Below, piece by piece: positions 18,481 to 25,410 of a DNA stretch of 64,000 nt. Source of the DNA: Candidatus Aminicenantales bacterium (GTDB lineage: Bacteria; Acidobacteriota; Aminicenantia; Aminicenantales; Aminicenantaceae); assembly GCA_046760305.1 (NCBI GenBank), contig JBHIDX010000007.1:5185-69184 (forward strand), written 5' to 3'. The notes under the pieces are model-generated. The model was given only the letters and a program-made list of their open reading frames with translations, ran no database searches and was not told where the DNA came from. The translations under genes and the position numbers were made by a program. Numbering within the stretch: position 1 is the stretch's first letter; the number at the start of each line of letters is the position of its first letter.

Positions 18481-18519
18481 ATGGACATGGATATCATGTC
18501 CCCTTTTTTCGCTTTTTTC
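18481..18519 (+). terminator. Rho-independent terminator-like hairpin on the + strand (orphan)
   Basis: GGACATG-gatat-CATGTCC, a 7-bp perfect stem, followed by CCTTTTTTCGCTTTTTTCG. It works only in + orientation, but both flanking genes are on the - strand. Confidence 0.5.
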
Positions 18520-18639
18520 GCCTGCTATAGGGAGGAGGTTTTAGGGGTGAAGGTCGTTGCTTTCTTAGTTTTTGCCAGGCTGGTTTCTGACGTCTGTTTA
18601 TTCCTCTGGGCATTATTATTTTATATCACTTCGCTTTCT

Positions 18640-19122
18640 TTACAAGGCTACTATCTCAGCTGTGAGTGACTTCTGGTCGAGAAGAACAACCGTTGGTCTG
18701 CCAGAAAGCCAGCCTCCCGCCTCTCCGGGGTTTATGAAGAGGGTGTTTTTTCTCTTTGTAACTTGGGGCTTATGTGTATGAGCGAAGACAGCGACATCGT
18801 ATTCCTTTGAGGCAGCATCTTTGTCGAGGACGAAATCAAGGTGGACGAGGAAAAAGTTGAGATTCTGGAAACTGAATGAATGCGGAGCTTCCTCTATTTC
18901 ACCCAAGGGTTCAAAGGCTTTCCTCAGTCCTTCTCTTTCGCCGTCGCAGTTGCCATAAACAGCTTTTACTCTGCACTTCAAGCCTCCGAGTTCCCTGGCA
19001 GCAAAGGGAGCGATAAAGTCACCAGCGTGGATGACCAGGCTGCATCGAGCGTCATTGAAAAGCTCAACAGCTCGCCTGATATTTGTGACGTTGTCATGGG
19101 AATCTGCCATGATTCCAATCAT
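18640..19122 (-). CDS. Metallophosphoesterase, YfcE/MJ0936 family
   Basis: MIGIMADSHDN…IHAGDF…GNCDGE…AHTHKP motifs. GGAGG-type SD (GAGGAGAGAGGG) upstream of ATG at 19122. The ORF-track 5' extension into low-complexity sequence was rejected. Confidence 0.8.
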   Translation of the reverse strand: MIGIMADSHDNVTNIRRAVELFNDARCSLVIHAGDFIAPFAARELGGLKCRVKAVYGNCDGEREGLRKAFEPLGEIEEAPHSFSFQNLNFFLVHLDFVLDKDAASKEYDVAVFAHTHKPQVTKRKNTLFINPGEAGGWLSGRPTVVLLDQKSLTAEIVAL

Positions 19123-19173
19123 CCCTCTCTCCTCAGTGCTCCTATTGTAGCAGAAAAAATCGAAAGTTTCAGT

Positions 19174-19653
19174 GTCCCGGCGTAAGCATCTTTTTTCCGT
19201 GATAATCAAACATAATATTAAAAGGAAGAAGAAAAAAGAAAAAGAAAGGAAAAAGAAAGAAGAAAGAAGAAAGGGGACGGGCCGCAGCAATTTATTTATA
19301 ATCAACAAATTACGTAATATTTTAACCCTAAAAAAGGCCTTAAATGCGATTTTTAAGGGCAAAAATCAATTTTAAACTTGAAGTGATTTTAAGAAAATCC
19401 TTAAAGCCCATTTTTGACCCCAAAAATGAAGTCTAAGGCATAAAATCGGCTTCATATTTGCATCTATCTTACTGATAACACTGAAATTAGTGAGGCCCGT
19501 CCCCTCTTATCCCTCTTATCCTTCTCTTATCCTTATCTTCTTATCTTATACCTTCCTCTTATACCTTATACCTCTTATACCCCTCTTATAACATAACCGT
19601 ACTCTTATAACCCTCTTATAATTATCACGCAAAAAAGATGCTTCCTGTCCCGG
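19174..19653. mobile_element. MITE-like non-autonomous element / large imperfect palindrome
   Basis: 21-bp terminal inverted repeats, GCATCTTTTTTCCGTGATAAT (19186-19206) and ATTATCACGCAAAAAAGATGC (19621-19641), with one mismatch. Flanking 7-bp direct repeats GTCCCGG at 19174-19180 and 19647-19653. Inside are a polypurine tract, GGGACGGGCC, an AT-rich core, GGCCCGTCCC, and a polypyrimidine tract with about 8 CCTCTTATA tandem units. No transposase. Confidence 0.55.
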
Positions 19654-19663
19654 TTATCTTCCT

Positions 19664-19692
19664 TTAACAAGCAGTAAATTTTGTGATAACAT
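19664..19692 (+). promoter_or_regulatory. Putative sigma70-type promoter for the ABC transporter operon (leaderless-like)
   Basis: TTAACA-N17-TAACAT ending about 12 nt before ATG 19705. No SD upstream of the ATG. Confidence 0.25.
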
Positions 19693-19704
19693 TCAGAAAG
19701 CTCA

Positions 19705-21213
19705 ATGCTGCTCCGTATGGAAAAAATAGAAAAATCATTTTCCGGAGTGCGTGTCCTCCACGGTGTTTCTTTTGAACTCAAGGAAGGAGAAATCCACGTT
19801 CTCGCCGGTGAAAACGGAGCGGGAAAAACTACCTTGATCAAGATTCTTTCCGGAGTTCACACTGATTATCAGGGTTTCATCCGCTTCAAAGGAGAATTAG
19901 TTCGCTTCAAATCACCCCAGGAAGCAGCTAAAAAGGGAATCGTTGCCATCCATCAGGAGCTTTCTTTGGTCAATTCGATGAGTGTCCTTGACAACATTTT
20001 CTTGGGGAGGGAAATCACACGACCCTCAGGATTCATCGATTATAGAGCCGAGCGGATAAAAGCCCGACCGATTCTCGAATGCCTGGGCCTGGAAGTCGAC
20101 CTTTCTCAGCCGGTTGAACATTATCCCTATTCTGTCCGCCAGATGGTAGAAATAGCCAAGACACTGGTAAACGATGCCCAGGTGATTGTCATGGATGAGC
20201 CTTCATCCGCCCTCTCCGAATTTGAAGTAAGAAAGCTCTTTAAAATCATCTCTGACCTAAAAAAAAGAGGATGCAGCCTTATTTACATCACTCACCGCCT
20301 CGAAGAAGTTTACCGCATCTCTGACCGGATCACTGTTCTTCGTGACGGACAGCATGTCGGCACAGCCTTAACTAGAGACCTCCATCCAGAAAAACTCATT
20401 CACTGGATGGTGGGCAGGGAAATCAGCCGGCAATTTCCTGAATACATTCACTGTCACGGAGAAGAAAGACTACGGGTAGGTTCACTTTTTGTCCCCGACC
20501 CCATGGGGATGAAGCGCTGGGTGGTGGAAAACATCTCTTTTTCTCTTCGTCAGGGCGAGATACTCGGGTTTGCCGGGCTTCAGGGTTCGGGAAAAAGCGA
20601 GCTTTTTCACGGCCTTTTTGGGTCTTTCGGCAGGGGAGTGAGGGGAAAAATTTTCCTTGACGGCAAACCAGTTGTTGTCCGCTCGCCTTCGGACTCGATC
20701 AGAGAAGGGATAGTCCTCTTGACCAATGACCGCAAGGGGACAGGGTTAATTCCTCCCTTGAATGTGGTTCACAACATCACTCTTGCCTCTTTAAGGAGAT
20801 TTTCTCCCCGGGGCTGGGTTCAGACTCAACGGGAGAATGAGCACAGTAAAAAATATGTGCAAAGACTCCAGATCAAGATTAATTCTTTAGACCAGGAGGT
20901 TCAAACTCTCTCCGGCGGCAACCAGCAGAAGGTCGTTCTGGCCAAATGGCTCGAGACAAATCCCCGGGTTTTGCTTCTCGATGAGCCAACTCTAGGAGTG
21001 GATGTGGGAGCCAAGCATGATATCTACTGTCTGATGAACGAGTGGAAATCCCAGGGGATATCCATGTGCCTCATCACTTCTGAGCTTCCAGAGCTGTTAG
21101 CCATGGCTGACCGTATCCTCGTTATGCACCGCGGCCGGAAGAAAGCGGAGTTTGCACGTGCTGAAGCTACCCAGGAAAAGCTGATGAAGGCTGCTGTAGG
21201 AGGAGAGGCTTGA
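19705..21213 (+). CDS. Sugar ABC transporter ATP-binding protein (tandem NBDs, RbsA/MglA/XylG type)
   Basis: Two Walker A motifs (GENGAGKTT and GLQGSGKSE). Two LSGG signatures. 502 aa. Confidence 0.88.
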   Translation: MLLRMEKIEKSFSGVRVLHGVSFELKEGEIHVLAGENGAGKTTLIKILSGVHTDYQGFIRFKGELVRFKSPQEAAKKGIVAIHQELSLVNSMSVLDNIFLGREITRPSGFIDYRAERIKARPILECLGLEVDLSQPVEHYPYSVRQMVEIAKTLVNDAQVIVMDEPSSALSEFEVRKLFKIISDLKKRGCSLIYITHRLEEVYRISDRITVLRDGQHVGTALTRDLHPEKLIHWMVGREISRQFPEYIHCHGEERLRVGSLFVPDPMGMKRWVVENISFSLRQGEILGFAGLQGSGKSELFHGLFGSFGRGVRGKIFLDGKPVVVRSPSDSIREGIVLLTNDRKGTGLIPPLNVVHNITLASLRRFSPRGWVQTQRENEHSKKYVQRLQIKINSLDQEVQTLSGGNQQKVVLAKWLETNPRVLLLDEPTLGVDVGAKHDIYCLMNEWKSQGISMCLITSELPELLAMADRILVMHRGRKKAEFARAEATQEKLMKAAVGGEA

Positions 21214-22202
21214 TTAAGAAAAGTGGACTTATTGCTCTCTTCAGCTCTCCTTTTGTCAGGGCATTTCTGGCTCTCGTTTTTGTTTTTGTTATCGGAATTG
21301 TCTTCAACGCTAATGGTGCTTTTTTCAAGTGGGAGACCCATCGTGATATGTTCCGCCATATTTCTGTTTTTGCCATTCTGGCTTGCGGGATGACAATGGT
21401 CATCATTGCCGCTGGCATCGATCTTTCGGTGGGAAGCTTGCTCGGGTGGAGTGCTGTCCTCTTTTCCATCCTCACCATTCAGAAAAGCCTCTCTCCACTG
21501 TTGGCAGTGCCTGTAGTACTCGTAACCGGACTTGCCTGTGGGATGATTTCTGGAGGTATCATAGCCCGCTTCAAAGTCCAGCCTTTTATCGCTACTTTAG
21601 CCATGATGGTTTTTGCCCGAGGAATGGCTAAATGGATATCAGGAGGAAGAAAGATTTCAACCGCTGTTCTTGACGCCTCGGGGAATTACCGTTATGTGGA
21701 AGTGCCGGGCGTTTTCAATTTTCTCAATTCCAAAGTCCTTCACCAAAACCTGGCCGTGGTGACTTTGATTTTCTTGGGTTGTGCTCTGTTGAGCTGGGTG
21801 CTTCTTTCCAAATTTCGCTTTGGCCGCTATTTATACGCTATCGGCGGCAATGAGGAAGCAGCCAGGCTTTCGGGTGTTCCAGTGGGAAAGACGAAGCTCT
21901 TTGCCTACGGCCTGAGCGGGCTCTTCAGCGCTGTGGCCGGCATCTGTCAGGCTGCTCAAGAGCTGCAGGGTGATCCTGAGGCAGGAATGACATATGAGCT
22001 TACTGCTATTGCCATTGTCGTCATCGGGGGCACAAGCCTCATGGGAGGAAAGGGAGGGATTGGCCTGACCATTGTCGGTGCGCTGACTATAGGGTATCTG
22101 GAAAAAATCTTGAGCGTTAACGCTGTTGGTGAGGCCAGCCGGTTGATGCTTACCGGAGCGATTATTGTTGGAGCAGTCCTCTTCCAGCGCGCTCGGAAGT
22201 GA
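21210..22202 (+). CDS. Sugar ABC transporter permease (RbsC/AraH-like)
   Basis: Polytopic membrane protein with the conserved GGxxxxGG region. Its start overlaps the ATPase stop by 4 nt. Confidence 0.85.
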   Translation: MIKKSGLIALFSSPFVRAFLALVFVFVIGIVFNANGAFFKWETHRDMFRHISVFAILACGMTMVIIAAGIDLSVGSLLGWSAVLFSILTIQKSLSPLLAVPVVLVTGLACGMISGGIIARFKVQPFIATLAMMVFARGMAKWISGGRKISTAVLDASGNYRYVEVPGVFNFLNSKVLHQNLAVVTLIFLGCALLSWVLLSKFRFGRYLYAIGGNEEAARLSGVPVGKTKLFAYGLSGLFSAVAGICQAAQELQGDPEAGMTYELTAIAIVVIGGTSLMGGKGGIGLTIVGALTIGYLEKILSVNAVGEASRLMLTGAIIVGAVLFQRARK

Positions 22203-22268
22203 AATGTTAGGTTGAAAAGAGCAGGATGAGGATGAATAATGAAAGCAGTTTTTTAGGTCGAGGGAAAA

Positions 22269-23246
22269 ATGGCTAAAAGTAACTTTTTTTTGATTGGCCT
22301 CATCATGGCCGGCCTTTTCTTCTGGTCCTGTAAGGGCCACCGGGAAGAAAACCTGGCTAAGAAAGAAAGGGGAGAGGAAGCAAAGCCGGGATGGACGATC
22401 GGGATGAGCCAGTGTAATTTGGGTGAACCGTGGAGAGTTCAGATGAACCTGGACATCAAGAACGAGGCAGAGAAGCATCCTGAGATAAGAGTGATTTTTA
22501 AGGATGCCCAGAATGATTCTCTTCGTCAGAGAGCCCAGATCGAGGAGTTCATAAATTCCGGAGTGGACCTGATAATCGTTTCTCCCAAGGAAGCAGCACC
22601 GCTTACCCCACCGGTAGCAGCTGCCTACGAGCAGGGGATCCCGGTCGTCGTCCTTGACCGCCGCGTGCTAGGAGATAAGTATACCTGCTTCATAGGTGCT
22701 GATAACAAGAAAATTGGCAGGGCAGCAGGACGCTGGGTTGTCGAGCGCTTGGGCGGGAAAGGCAAAGTTGTGGAGCTTAAAGGACTGATGACCTCTACCC
22801 CTGGTCAGGACAGGCATACCGGGTTTAGAGAAGGAATCGGGGGGAGTGAAATTGAGGTCATTTTTGAAGCGGATATGAAGTGGCTTGAGCCTGAAGCGAG
22901 AGAAGAGATGGAATCAGCTCTGGCCCGTTTTCCCGACATTGACCTCGTCTATGCTCATAATGACCCTGGGGCACATGGTGCCTACCTGGCCGCAAAGGCC
23001 TCAGGCCGGGAAAAGGAGATTATTTTTATCGGCATCGACGGTCTTCCCCACGAAGGTCAAGTGTATGTTCGGCAGGGAATCCTCGAAGCCAGCTTTGAAT
23101 ACCCTACTGGAGGAAAAGAAGCTGTCCAGGTCGCGCTCCAGATTCTCCAGAAAAAAAAAGTTCCTAAGGAAATTGTCCTTCCTTCTCGAGTCTTCACCGC
23201 ACAAAACATCGGCCGGGGCGGCGAATATATTGATGGAGAAGATTAA
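22269..23246 (+). CDS. Sugar ABC transporter periplasmic substrate-binding lipoprotein (PBP type I, RbsB-like)
   Basis: Lipobox LFFWSC. Periplasmic binding fold (…VDLIIVSP…VVVLDR…YAHNDPGAHGA…). Confidence 0.82.
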   Translation: MAKSNFFLIGLIMAGLFFWSCKGHREENLAKKERGEEAKPGWTIGMSQCNLGEPWRVQMNLDIKNEAEKHPEIRVIFKDAQNDSLRQRAQIEEFINSGVDLIIVSPKEAAPLTPPVAAAYEQGIPVVVLDRRVLGDKYTCFIGADNKKIGRAAGRWVVERLGGKGKVVELKGLMTSTPGQDRHTGFREGIGGSEIEVIFEADMKWLEPEAREEMESALARFPDIDLVYAHNDPGAHGAYLAAKASGREKEIIFIGIDGLPHEGQVYVRQGILEASFEYPTGGKEAVQVALQILQKKKVPKEIVLPSRVFTAQNIGRGGEYIDGED

Positions 23247-23268
23247 AAAGACAAGAGGAAAAGAACTC

Positions 23269-24783
23269 ATGAGAAAGGTAGTGGATATTTATTTACCGCT
23301 TGATAGCCGCGAGGAGCCGAACAGAATTGTCTGGCCGGTGACGAAGAAACAACTTAAAGAACTCACCAGAGTCATCGAAAAATGCGGCTGGAAAGCTTGT
23401 GTGTTAAACCCTCACAAGCCAGTGGCCAGTGTGGCTGAGGGAATGAGAACCATTGAGAAGGCCAGGGGAGAGAGGTTCATCAATTTCATGGGAGGCTGGG
23501 CCTATCCCGATTTTTCTGTCAGTCCGATGGCCCAGCTGCCAGAAGAGGTGCCCAAACTCTTGGTTGGAAGTGCCATTCCCGATTTTCCCGGGAACGTGGG
23601 GCTTTTTGCCGCTGCTTCAGGTTTGGCTCAGGTGGGTATTGAAACAGAGCGCGTTTTTATCGAGGAATTCAGCAAGCACGATACTTATGAGGATGATATC
23701 GCTTCTTTCTTAAGGGATGGAAAAATTAAAAGACATCTTCCCCAAACCATCGATATCGCTGTCACTGAGGCTCAAAGGGAAAAGGCAAGGAAGGTTAAGG
23801 ACAAACTCCGTGGAATGATATACGGTGCGGTCGGCCCGCGCTCGATGCAGATGTGGAACAAAGTTAGCGAAGCTGATTTCCTTCGTTATTTCGGAATTGC
23901 CAGAGAAGGTTTTGACGGACTTCGCCTGCTGAAGATGGCGGAAAAGGTGAGTGATAAGCGCGCAGAGAAAGCCATGAATTTCCTCATCGACAAGGGGATG
24001 GAGATTCGGCTGGGAAAGGACCCGCAGAGGCATCTAACGAAAGAGATGGTCATTTTTCAGATGAAAGTTTATTTTGCCCTTCTCGAGCTCAAGGAGCAGT
24101 TCGGCCTGGATTTTGTCGGGGTCCAGGACCAGCTCGATTGGATCGAACATTATCCCGCCACAGATTTGACTTTGGGAATCCTGAATAACAAGCTCAGACC
24201 TGAAGGTGAGGAGACGACTCTGGTTGCCGCCACCGAAGCAGATGATGGTGCGGCCATCACCATGCAGGTCCTCAAGCTCCTCAACGGAGGAGAACCGGTG
24301 GGTTTCAACGACCTTCGTTACTGGGAGCCGAGGAAGGGACTTTACTGGTTTGTCAATTCCGGTGCTCTAGCGCCTTATTTTGCTTACGGTAGCCACGATT
24401 CTTTAAAGGGAGCCTGGTCCGAGAGACAGCCTTACATGTATTTTAAGCAAGGAGGAGGAACGTGTAGTGTGGTTGTCCGTATCCCCGGTGTAGTCACCTG
24501 GGCACGCTTCTCTTACCGTAATTATGGCTTGTATTTGTGTGCAGGAAGGGGGGTAACTGATGTGCCAACCGAGAACGAATGGCACAAACGTTCTGCACGG
24601 TGTAACCCTGAATGGCCTCACTGGTACCTTAAACTTTGCGCAAAGGTGGAGTGGAAAGTGAACTCCAATCATCCTCTCACAGTCTGTGGGGATTATCTGG
24701 CTGAGCTCAAAGCTCTGGCAGAGGAGTTAGACATTCCGTTTGAATGCTACGATCATCTAAAGCCTGAGGACATTCCTCGATAA
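23269..24783 (+). CDS. L-fucose isomerase family (FucI-like) sugar isomerase
   Basis: 504 aa. C-terminal region typical of the FucI/AraA-like family. AGAGGAAAAG SD sits 6-16 nt upstream of ATG 23269. The ORF-track start at 22885 runs through the SBP gene and was rejected. Confidence 0.5.
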   Translation: MRKVVDIYLPLDSREEPNRIVWPVTKKQLKELTRVIEKCGWKACVLNPHKPVASVAEGMRTIEKARGERFINFMGGWAYPDFSVSPMAQLPEEVPKLLVGSAIPDFPGNVGLFAAASGLAQVGIETERVFIEEFSKHDTYEDDIASFLRDGKIKRHLPQTIDIAVTEAQREKARKVKDKLRGMIYGAVGPRSMQMWNKVSEADFLRYFGIAREGFDGLRLLKMAEKVSDKRAEKAMNFLIDKGMEIRLGKDPQRHLTKEMVIFQMKVYFALLELKEQFGLDFVGVQDQLDWIEHYPATDLTLGILNNKLRPEGEETTLVAATEADDGAAITMQVLKLLNGGEPVGFNDLRYWEPRKGLYWFVNSGALAPYFAYGSHDSLKGAWSERQPYMYFKQGGGTCSVVVRIPGVVTWARFSYRNYGLYLCAGRGVTDVPTENEWHKRSARCNPEWPHWYLKLCAKVEWKVNSNHPLTVCGDYLAELKALAEELDIPFECYDHLKPEDIPR

Positions 24784-25208
24784 AATATCACCGATTAAAT
24801 TTAGCTGCCACCACCGGTCTTCTCCAGTCAAAAACACAATTTCATAAGACTCTATTGTTTGTCCAAGATGACTTTTAACCATCGGCAGAATGCTTAACTT
24901 TTAGATGCTGCCTTACTTTCTCCTCGATCTTTTTTCGGGCTTCAAGCCGGGAAAGCCAGTCGCTCGGCAGAGCACTAGCTCCTGAGCGGGCTCCTGCCCC
25001 TGCTCCGGCCATCGCTCCTACCCGTAATTGAAGGCATAAACTTTTAGACCCTGGTTGACTTTTTTTCGACTCCTTCCTATACTCGCTTCTAAAGTTGAGA
25101 AAAAAACAGAATTGAAAAAGGAAAACCGAGTAAATGGATCACCCTTAATGCTTTACATGCTTTAAAGCTCTATTATGGATAAAGTCGGAATCTCGCCTTA
25201 CTGCTCTA

Positions 25209-25238
25209 TTGACACCTATAGGCTTTATTTTTTATCAT
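25209..25238 (+). promoter_or_regulatory. Putative promoter for tRNA-Val
   Basis: TTGACA (25209-25214), a 17-18 nt spacer, then TATCAT. It ends about 20 nt before the tRNA 5' end. Confidence 0.4.
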
Positions 25239-25257
25239 ATATTAGCTTTGTGAAGGC

Positions 25258-25332
25258 AGGCGCGTAGCTCAGTGGTAGAGTGCTTCCTTGACGCGGAAGA
25301 GGTCGAGGGTTCGATACCCTCCGCGCCTACCA
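25258..25332 (+). tRNA. tRNA-Val (anticodon GAC)
   Basis: 7-bp acceptor stem AGGCGCG/CGCGCCT. D arm GCTCAGTGGTAGAG. Anticodon stem CTTCC/GGAAG with loop TTGACGC. T arm GAGGGTTCGATACCCTC. Encoded CCA. Confidence 0.9.
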
Positions 25333-25410
25333 ATTTATTTTGGAGTTATCATTTTGTACATTGGAAGAGATAAATGAGTACCGCAGCTTGCTCTCTACAT
25401 ACAGTGTTTA

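Follow-up and report, generated by a model that had tools for sequence, protein, structure and literature searches.

A probable transposase-less element of an ISKra4/ISLre2-related family between two divergent promoters in an Aminicenantales genome

In the window, that is, the whole 64-kb stretch of DNA analyzed here, a YfcE-type phosphoesterase gene (18640-19122, minus strand) is transcribed away from a sugar ABC operon, which contains the genes of a two-domain sugar-type ABC ATPase (19705-21213, plus strand), a permease (21210-22202), and a periplasmic binding protein (22269-23246), with a 504-aa fucose-isomerase-like gene (23269-24783) beyond it. The spacer between the two transcription units is bounded by inverted repeats, and a preliminary description had interpreted it either as a miniature, non-autonomous transposon or as a structured regulatory module. 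The locus thus raises the question of which kind of DNA occupies this divergent promoter region, and what its presence means for the promoters of the adjoining genes. Comparison of the spacer with metagenomic sequences indicates that positions 19182-19645 very probably represent a non-autonomous transposable element (MITE) of a family with terminal repeats of approximately 24 bp and the consensus G[G/T]AAGCATCTTTTTTTCCGTGATA.

Boundaries and interior of the element

The core of the terminal inverted repeat, 23 nt in length, has the sequence AAGCATCTTTTTTCCGTGATAAT at 19184-19206 and is found in reverse complement, with one mismatch, at 19621-19643. Not a single chance match to it was obtained in 100 shuffles of the window. 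The inverted repeat with one mismatch that had been noticed in the spacer was thereby confirmed, with ends situated 2 nt further out. By comparison with the other members of the family, the repeats were extended outward by two additional bases (GT on one side, GG on the other) to 19182-19206 and 19621-19645, which gives terminal inverted repeats of 25 bp with two mismatches, G[T/G]AAGCATCTTTTTT[C/G]CGTGATAAT, and a non-coding element of 464 bp spanning 19182-19645. The left repeat, GTAAGCATCTTTTTTCCGTGATAAT (19182-19206, plus strand), carries the 'GT' end, fits the family consensus and resembles the transposase-distal repeat (IRR) of the full-length insertion sequence described below, and the right repeat (19621-19645, minus strand; reverse complement GGAAGCATCTTTTTTGCGTGATAAT) carries the 'GG' end.

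Both terminal repeats are directly abutted by a 9-bp direct repeat, which reads TGTCCCGGC on the left (19173-19181) and TGTCCCGGT on the right (19646-19654). The two copies are identical in eight of nine positions and share the string TGTCCCGG at 19173-19180 and 19646-19653. The shorter direct repeat GTCCCGG (19174-19180 and 19647-19653), which the preliminary description had regarded as a 7-bp target-site duplication, is a portion of this 9-bp repeat. Its interpretation as a genuine target-site duplication was upheld; its length is 9 bp, and it adjoins the terminal repeats, the gap of '5 nt outward' having been noted because the inverted repeat was taken to begin at GCATC. Of the 35 family members listed, 25 share this 9-bp geometry. 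The single mismatch between the duplication copies, together with the two mismatches between the terminal repeats, suggests that some time has passed since the insertion.

The interior of the element consists of two arms and a core. In the left arm (19207-19283, plus strand), a short AT stretch precedes a purine tract (71% A, 20% G) with (AAGAAAG)n-type repeats, and the arm ends with an inner repeat, GGGGACGGGCC (19273-19283). The inverted counterpart of this inner repeat, GGCCCGTCCCC (19494-19504), opens the right arm (19494-19620, plus strand), and behind it lies a tract of pyrimidines made up of CTCTTAT(C/A)C-type repeats; the right interior contains 45% T and 33% C. Measured from the terminal repeat to the inner repeat, the outer arms have lengths of 102 nt (left) and 152 nt (right); when aligned as inverted copies they are identical in 88 of 101 ungapped columns (87%), and the right arm, which contains about 50 nt of slippage-type extra sequence, is an inverted, slippage-expanded counterpart of the left arm. 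The AT-rich core of 210 bp (19284-19493) is not palindromic and contains two 47-nt direct repeats (19329-19375 and 19390-19436; 72% identical) with a small hairpin in each. The designation of the whole element as a giant imperfect palindrome is therefore appropriate for the outer arms and not for the core. The inner repeats were also considered as the ends of a nested second element, a possibility that was rejected as no direct repeat flanks them.

As proposed earlier, the folding of both strands was assessed, and the predicted structures were far more stable than those of shuffled sequences (z = -6.1 for DNA, -5.6 and -9.0 for the two RNA strands), the lowest z-score belonging to the minus-strand RNA with -163.8 kcal/mol. 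No credible open reading frame was found inside the element, in agreement with the original observation; apart from overlaps with the flanking genes, there is only a 67-aa low-complexity reading of the purine tract rich in Lys, Glu, and Arg. A permissive Rfam scan (E of 1 or less) yielded no match for the element region, the core included, and scans of the window and of the related loci L004 and L005 at the gathering threshold retrieved tRNA only. When homologs of the interior were sought among 120 family loci, only low-complexity purine-run matches were obtained. No homolog of the core and no second copy with the same interior were present among the fetched family loci, and blastn searches of plasmid and phage collections with the element gave no match.

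One Logan contig (L001, from SRR29324583), the product of a separate assembly, is identical to positions 19483-23859 of the window. It begins inside the core of the element at 19483, covers the right arm, the terminal repeat, the duplication, and the ABC operon, and runs unbroken through the junction of repeat and flank. Hence, no other copy sharing the subterminal sequence confused that assembly, and there are hints that the subfamily of the window element is present at low copy number.

The repeat family and its transposase-encoding members

Metagenome contigs were scanned with the pattern GCATCTTTTTTN{1,2}CGTGATA, which located the terminal repeat on more than 120 contigs (a lower bound), many of them from the same few metagenome projects. 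Among the matches listed, approximately 170 repeat ends have diverse flanks, bases that the pattern does not require are conserved as well ([G/T][G/T]AA before GCATC), and about nine recurrent classes can be distinguished by the sequence inside the repeat, each of them found next to different outer flanks. A fuzzy search of the matches listed recovered 37 convergent repeat pairs, 35 of them non-redundant, which enclose 69-479 bp. The 9-mers flanking these pairs match at seven or more of nine positions in 25 of the 35 non-redundant pairs listed, a level that was reached by 2% of the flanks after random re-pairing, which served as control; the mean match was 6.5 of nine positions in the listed pairs versus 2.6 after re-pairing. 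Further copies with different flanks, as had been anticipated, thus exist for the repeat family, although none with the interior of the window element was found among the fetched loci. The smallest members (L101, positions 547-616; L115, positions 134-198) comprise hardly more than two inverted terminal repeats separated by about 27 nt and have a total length of 69-74 bp including the terminal dinucleotides. Carriers of the family include the Aminicenantales-labelled metagenome-assembled genome of the window and relatives that share its phosphoesterase locus. The same repeat scan applied to the GTDB species representatives gave two chance single matches in coding regions, in Peptococcaceae and Paenibacillus, and did not recover the window locus.

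One of the interior classes can be read as the 3' end of a gene. The respective reading frame in L022 codes for the C-terminal 303 amino acids of a transposase and stops 8 nt before the repeat. In profile searches, this partial protein matched the NCBIfam models ISKra4 (E = 3e-37) and ISLre2 (2e-33), and with 47.1 bits it exceeded the gathering score of 24.3 of the Pfam family UPF0236. Full-length homologs of the transposase have 422-426 aa. A full-length partner transposase scored 179.7 bits against ISKra4 (E = 1e-52) and 147.5 bits against ISLre2 (E = 6e-43), and since both values are below the curated NCBI cut-offs of 205 and 200, respectively, this transposase group is a divergent relative of ISKra4/ISLre2. 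In L130, L132, and L133 the gene is located between a left repeat (IRL), GGAAGCATCCCCAATTCCGTGAT, and a right repeat (IRR; reverse complement GTAAGCATCTTTTTTTCCGTGATG), forming an element of approximately 1.39 kb; the contig of L131 starts 2 nt outside the IRL end. The same arrangement, with GGAAGCAT...CCGTGAT at the IRL and ...CACGG...ATGCTTAC at the IRR around a UPF0236 transposase gene, was observed in L130-L133 and additionally in L134-L150. Shorter portions of the gene adjoin the repeat in L014, L017, and L125, which retain 65, 40, and 24 C-terminal transposase codons, and these three together with L022 are putative deletion intermediates between the insertion sequence and the MITE.

As judged by sequence comparison, these analyses show that the predicted autonomous members of the family are insertion sequences of approximately 1.4 kb encoding an ISKra4/ISLre2-like (UPF0236) transposase, that family members are flanked by apparent target-site duplications of 9 bp, and that the shorter members grade from presumed deletion derivatives with a transposase remnant to repeat-only units of 69 bp. 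The transposase of the family had no tblastn match anywhere in the 64-kb window. The window copy, which lacks a transposase gene, would consequently have to have been moved in trans by a family enzyme that binds both of its ends, and a staggered cut of 9 bp followed by repair would have given rise to TGTCCCGG(C/T) on both sides. Thus, the identification of the spacer as a MITE was borne out with corrected boundaries by the repeat family, the 9-bp duplications, and a transposase partner with the same ends. The family of insertion sequences and MITEs appears to be large in sediment metagenomes and is seemingly undescribed in the literature searched.

Flanking promoters, related loci, and alternative explanations

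The best sigma-70-like site of the phosphoesterase gene (CTGAAA and TACAAT, separated by 17 nt, with TG; 19144-19172, minus strand) and that of the sugar ABC operon (TTAACA and TAACAT, likewise separated by 17 nt and with TG; 19664-19692, plus strand) are both located outside the element, and neither a promoter-like site nor a terminator was found inside. The predicted -35 hexamer of the phosphoesterase promoter touches the left copy of the duplication, 9 nt from the GT end, and the predicted -35 hexamer of the ABC promoter is 18 nt from the GG end. A -10 sequence (TAGAAT/TACAAT) is also present at the corresponding position of the phosphoesterase gene in L004, L005, L007, and L009, which are orthologous loci. 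An empty site would read ...TTTCAG / TGTCCCGGY / TATCTTCCT / TTAACA..., and reads spanning an empty allele would be expected to contain ...GAAAGTTTCAGTGTCCCGGYTATCTTCCTTTAACAAG.... The element would then have entered the 18 bp between the -35 hexamers of the phosphoesterase and ABC promoters, which are arranged back to back, and the insertion would have pushed the two promoters 473 bp apart (464 bp of element and 9 bp of duplication) and left both core promoters intact. The suggestion that the element might supply the flanking promoters was accordingly not substantiated by the location of the predicted sites; by these predictions, the element separated the flanking promoters and does not supply them. 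As the core promoters appear undestroyed, any effect of the insertion on expression would probably concern upstream contacts or the coupling of the two promoters and not promoter supply.

The phosphoesterase of the window is 100% identical to a protein from an NCBI metagenome-assembled genome labelled Candidatus Aminicenantales bacterium, and in the nearest relatives beyond it the protein is only about 65% identical. In two relatives, L005 and L009, tRNA-Val and ThrRS directly adjoin the phosphoesterase gene in divergent orientation. Positions 19142-25395 of the window had no tblastx counterpart in L005, and the block is absent from the syntenic loci L005 and L009; the tRNA-Val gene (25258-25332 in the window), which would have escaped tblastx, is also present in L005. 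The lack of a counterpart in both loci indicates that the sugar ABC operon and the fucose-isomerase-like gene are a lineage-specific block between the phosphoesterase gene and tRNA-Val. Exact-protein look-ups found no record for the phosphoesterase or the neighboring 434-aa protein and located the ABC ATPase on a Logan contig. All five loci (the window, L004, L005, L007, and L009) also have a conserved small basic reading frame of 39-56 aa between the phosphoesterase gene and the gene of the 434-aa protein (window 18494-18613, minus strand; L004 801-971; L005 6536-6685; L007 1008-1145; L009 3524-3673). Its sequence is MPRxIxRRQKPAWQKLRKPxPPPxKP..KKGKKGY.RKDK, and it is called as a gene in L005 only.

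Upstream of the phosphoesterase gene, other family members or their remnants apparently occur at the same promoter in the relatives. L004 and L007 contain the motif TATCACGGAAAAAAAGATGC, which is much like the left repeat of the window element, 54-63 nt ahead of the start codon of the phosphoesterase ortholog and without the 460-bp element. In L004 a 'class 9' interior directly adjoins this motif, in L007 a second pair of copies bounds a unit of approximately 115 bp located between the phosphoesterase gene and the adjacent one, and L004, L005, and L009 share a conserved block ahead of the phosphoesterase gene that represents the interior of one family class. The putative upstream remnants are located at 5631-5862 in L005, 100-187 and 1159-1272 in L007, 2830-2900 in L009, and 1-169 in L004. 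They take the form of GGGAATGGC..GCCATTCCC hairpin modules and of GCTAAA.CTG..GTCGCTTCATCCATTCCC blocks and are found in both orientations. An unrelated perfect inverted repeat of 23 bp with a spacer of 35 nt is present in L005 (5866-5946), and in several assemblies the contigs end upstream of the phosphoesterase gene. Two interpretations, namely the L004/L007 motif as a conserved upstream regulatory site and an orientation difference between L005 and L007 as an invertible switch, were dropped in view of the repeat pairs with 9-bp duplications and the transposase partner.

Three other explanations of the spacer have to be weighed against a MITE. The repeats might be resident regulatory DNA, that is, operator or upstream-element sites for a factor that acts on both promoters, perhaps by looping, and that are conserved in the relatives. 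Such sites would be in keeping with the motif at 54-63 nt from the orthologous start codon in L004 and L007, with the equal distance of 62 nt between each terminal repeat in the window and the start codon of the adjoining gene, and with an A-tract in the motif at a plausible distance for an upstream element. However, in L004 the motif terminates a different family member, whose 'class 9' interior adjoins it, and the motif recurs at about 170 sites listed, typically in convergent pairs with 9-bp duplications, and at the end of a transposase gene. Since target duplications are not expected around the site of a regulator, this explanation is very improbable, and the alternative of a structured regulatory module offered in the preliminary description is not supported either. 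A structured non-coding RNA gene with the long hairpin as its product, which the very stable predicted folds and in particular that of the minus strand could indicate, is exceedingly unlikely: the element region lacks an Rfam match even under permissive settings as well as any detected internal promoter or terminator, its interior is not conserved among the fetched family copies, and the stability is a trivial consequence of the inverted arms of a palindromic transposon.

An inverton, in which a site-specific recombinase would flip the repeat-bounded segment and thereby switch the expression of the flanking genes, could account for a 460-bp segment with inverted repeats of about 25 bp in a divergent promoter region, for a related block that precedes the phosphoesterase gene in opposite orientations in L005 and L007, and for the frequent breaks of metagenome contigs in this region. 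Inversion does not create the 9-bp direct duplication that flanks the repeats, however, and these repeats also delimit a transposase gene and many elements at loci unrelated to this one. Independent insertions of family members account for the orientation difference between the relatives, no promoter-like site is found inside the element to be switched, and there is no recombinase gene among the neighbors identified by synteny and Pfam. Inversion is thus an extremely improbable origin of the structure, and the spacer is best explained as a non-autonomous member of the transposable repeat family.

Relation to promoters and to known transposable elements

The flanks of the family members listed were inspected for promoter signals separately for both types of ends. 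Outside the GT (IRR-type) ends, positions 17-21 are dominated by T (79%), T (79%), G (56%), A (53%), and C (35%), and an A/T signal resembling a -10 region follows 17 nt beyond these -35-like positions, whereas nothing comparable is found at the GG ends. A full promoter-like site with its -35 element at an offset of 15-17 was detected at 21 of the 57 non-redundant GT ends listed. The offset is exactly 16 in 15 of these 21, and no other offset is represented by more than two, while the GG ends listed have at most one promoter-like site at any offset. The full-length copies, which were not chosen by the repeat pattern, were used for an additional test of the offset: all four (L130-L133) fit a distance of 16 nt, as do nine of ten independent right flanks from two further subgroups of the insertion sequence. 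In the full-length copies examined, the transposase gene and the host gene downstream of the element point in the same direction.

The -35 region is separated from the end of the element by the 9-bp duplication, an arrangement which implies that the promoter was present before the insertion, and the sharpness of the offset to a single base argues for targeting over survivorship. On balance, we therefore lean towards the interpretation that the family is targeted to sigma-70 promoters in single-nucleotide register and fixed orientation, with the 'GT' end of the IRR placed 16 bp upstream of the -35 hexamer. The position of the window insertion just upstream of sigma-70-type promoters fits this family habit; the gap is 18 nt toward the ABC promoter and 9 nt toward the phosphoesterase promoter, and both values differ from the modal family gap of 16 nt.

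Small, non-coding, multi-copy elements with terminal inverted repeats and a target duplication are well known from bacteria, such as the Correia elements of Neisseria and the pneumococcal RUP. These MITEs are often found in intergenic DNA near promoters, and they can form long hairpins; Correia elements measure about 100-155 bp and are flanked by a duplicated TA, and for RUP a link to IS630-type elements is known. The window element is likewise non-coding, bounded by repeats, flanked by a duplication, and adjacent to promoters, but differs in its size of 464 bp, its 9-bp duplication, its ISKra4/ISLre2-like partner, and its unique interior of purine/pyrimidine simple repeats. Insertion sequences that use signals of gene expression as targets are also known: the IS900-type elements of the IS110 family insert between ribosome-binding site and start codon in an orientation-specific manner. 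These elements encode DEDD recombinases and are not known to have terminal inverted repeats or to cause a 9-bp duplication. Common to them and the family described here are a target of this kind and a single orientation, but here a DDE-type element inserts approximately 16 bp ahead of the -35 hexamer, without damage to the promoter.

The closest known systems are the ISLre2 and ISKra4 families (Pfam UPF0236; for example, ISGka4 of Geobacillus kaustophilus). The partner element likewise encodes a single transposase of approximately 425 aa with ISKra4 and ISLre2 as best profiles, and the family resembles ISLre2, for which 9-bp direct repeats have been reported (PMC8024623), also in its combination of terminal inverted repeats with direct repeats of this length. 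A genome survey found both ISLre2 and ISKra4 preferentially in intergenic regions at a distance of 50-250 bp from the nearest gene (PMC9208149), which fits the placement in the window. In contrast, ISLre2 has been reported almost exclusively from Firmicutes (PMC9208149), whereas the family was found here in an Aminicenantales-labelled metagenome-assembled genome and its relatives, and the window element differs from all of these insertion sequences as a transposase-less derivative. In the retrieved literature on ISLre2 and ISKra4, no description was found of their MITEs or of a promoter target in fixed register.

For the locus studied here, these results mean that the odd spacer is most likely parasitic DNA and not a designed regulatory module, and that both flanking genes keep their own predicted promoters. 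On a larger scale, the family may account for frequent assembly breaks upstream of genes in sediment metagenomes. If the family is indeed targeted to promoters, its 9-bp duplication would cover about -51 to -43, and integration would be guided by promoter-bound RNA polymerase or by the geometry of promoter DNA near the position of the alpha-CTD and the UP element. Yeast Ty and Tf1 elements use a promoter-proximal 'safe-haven' targeting, of which the family would represent a bacterial counterpart. The oriented placement at 16 bp could make it a natural promoter marker in uncultured bacteria, and the family could serve as a model of how a DDE transposase reads promoter architecture.
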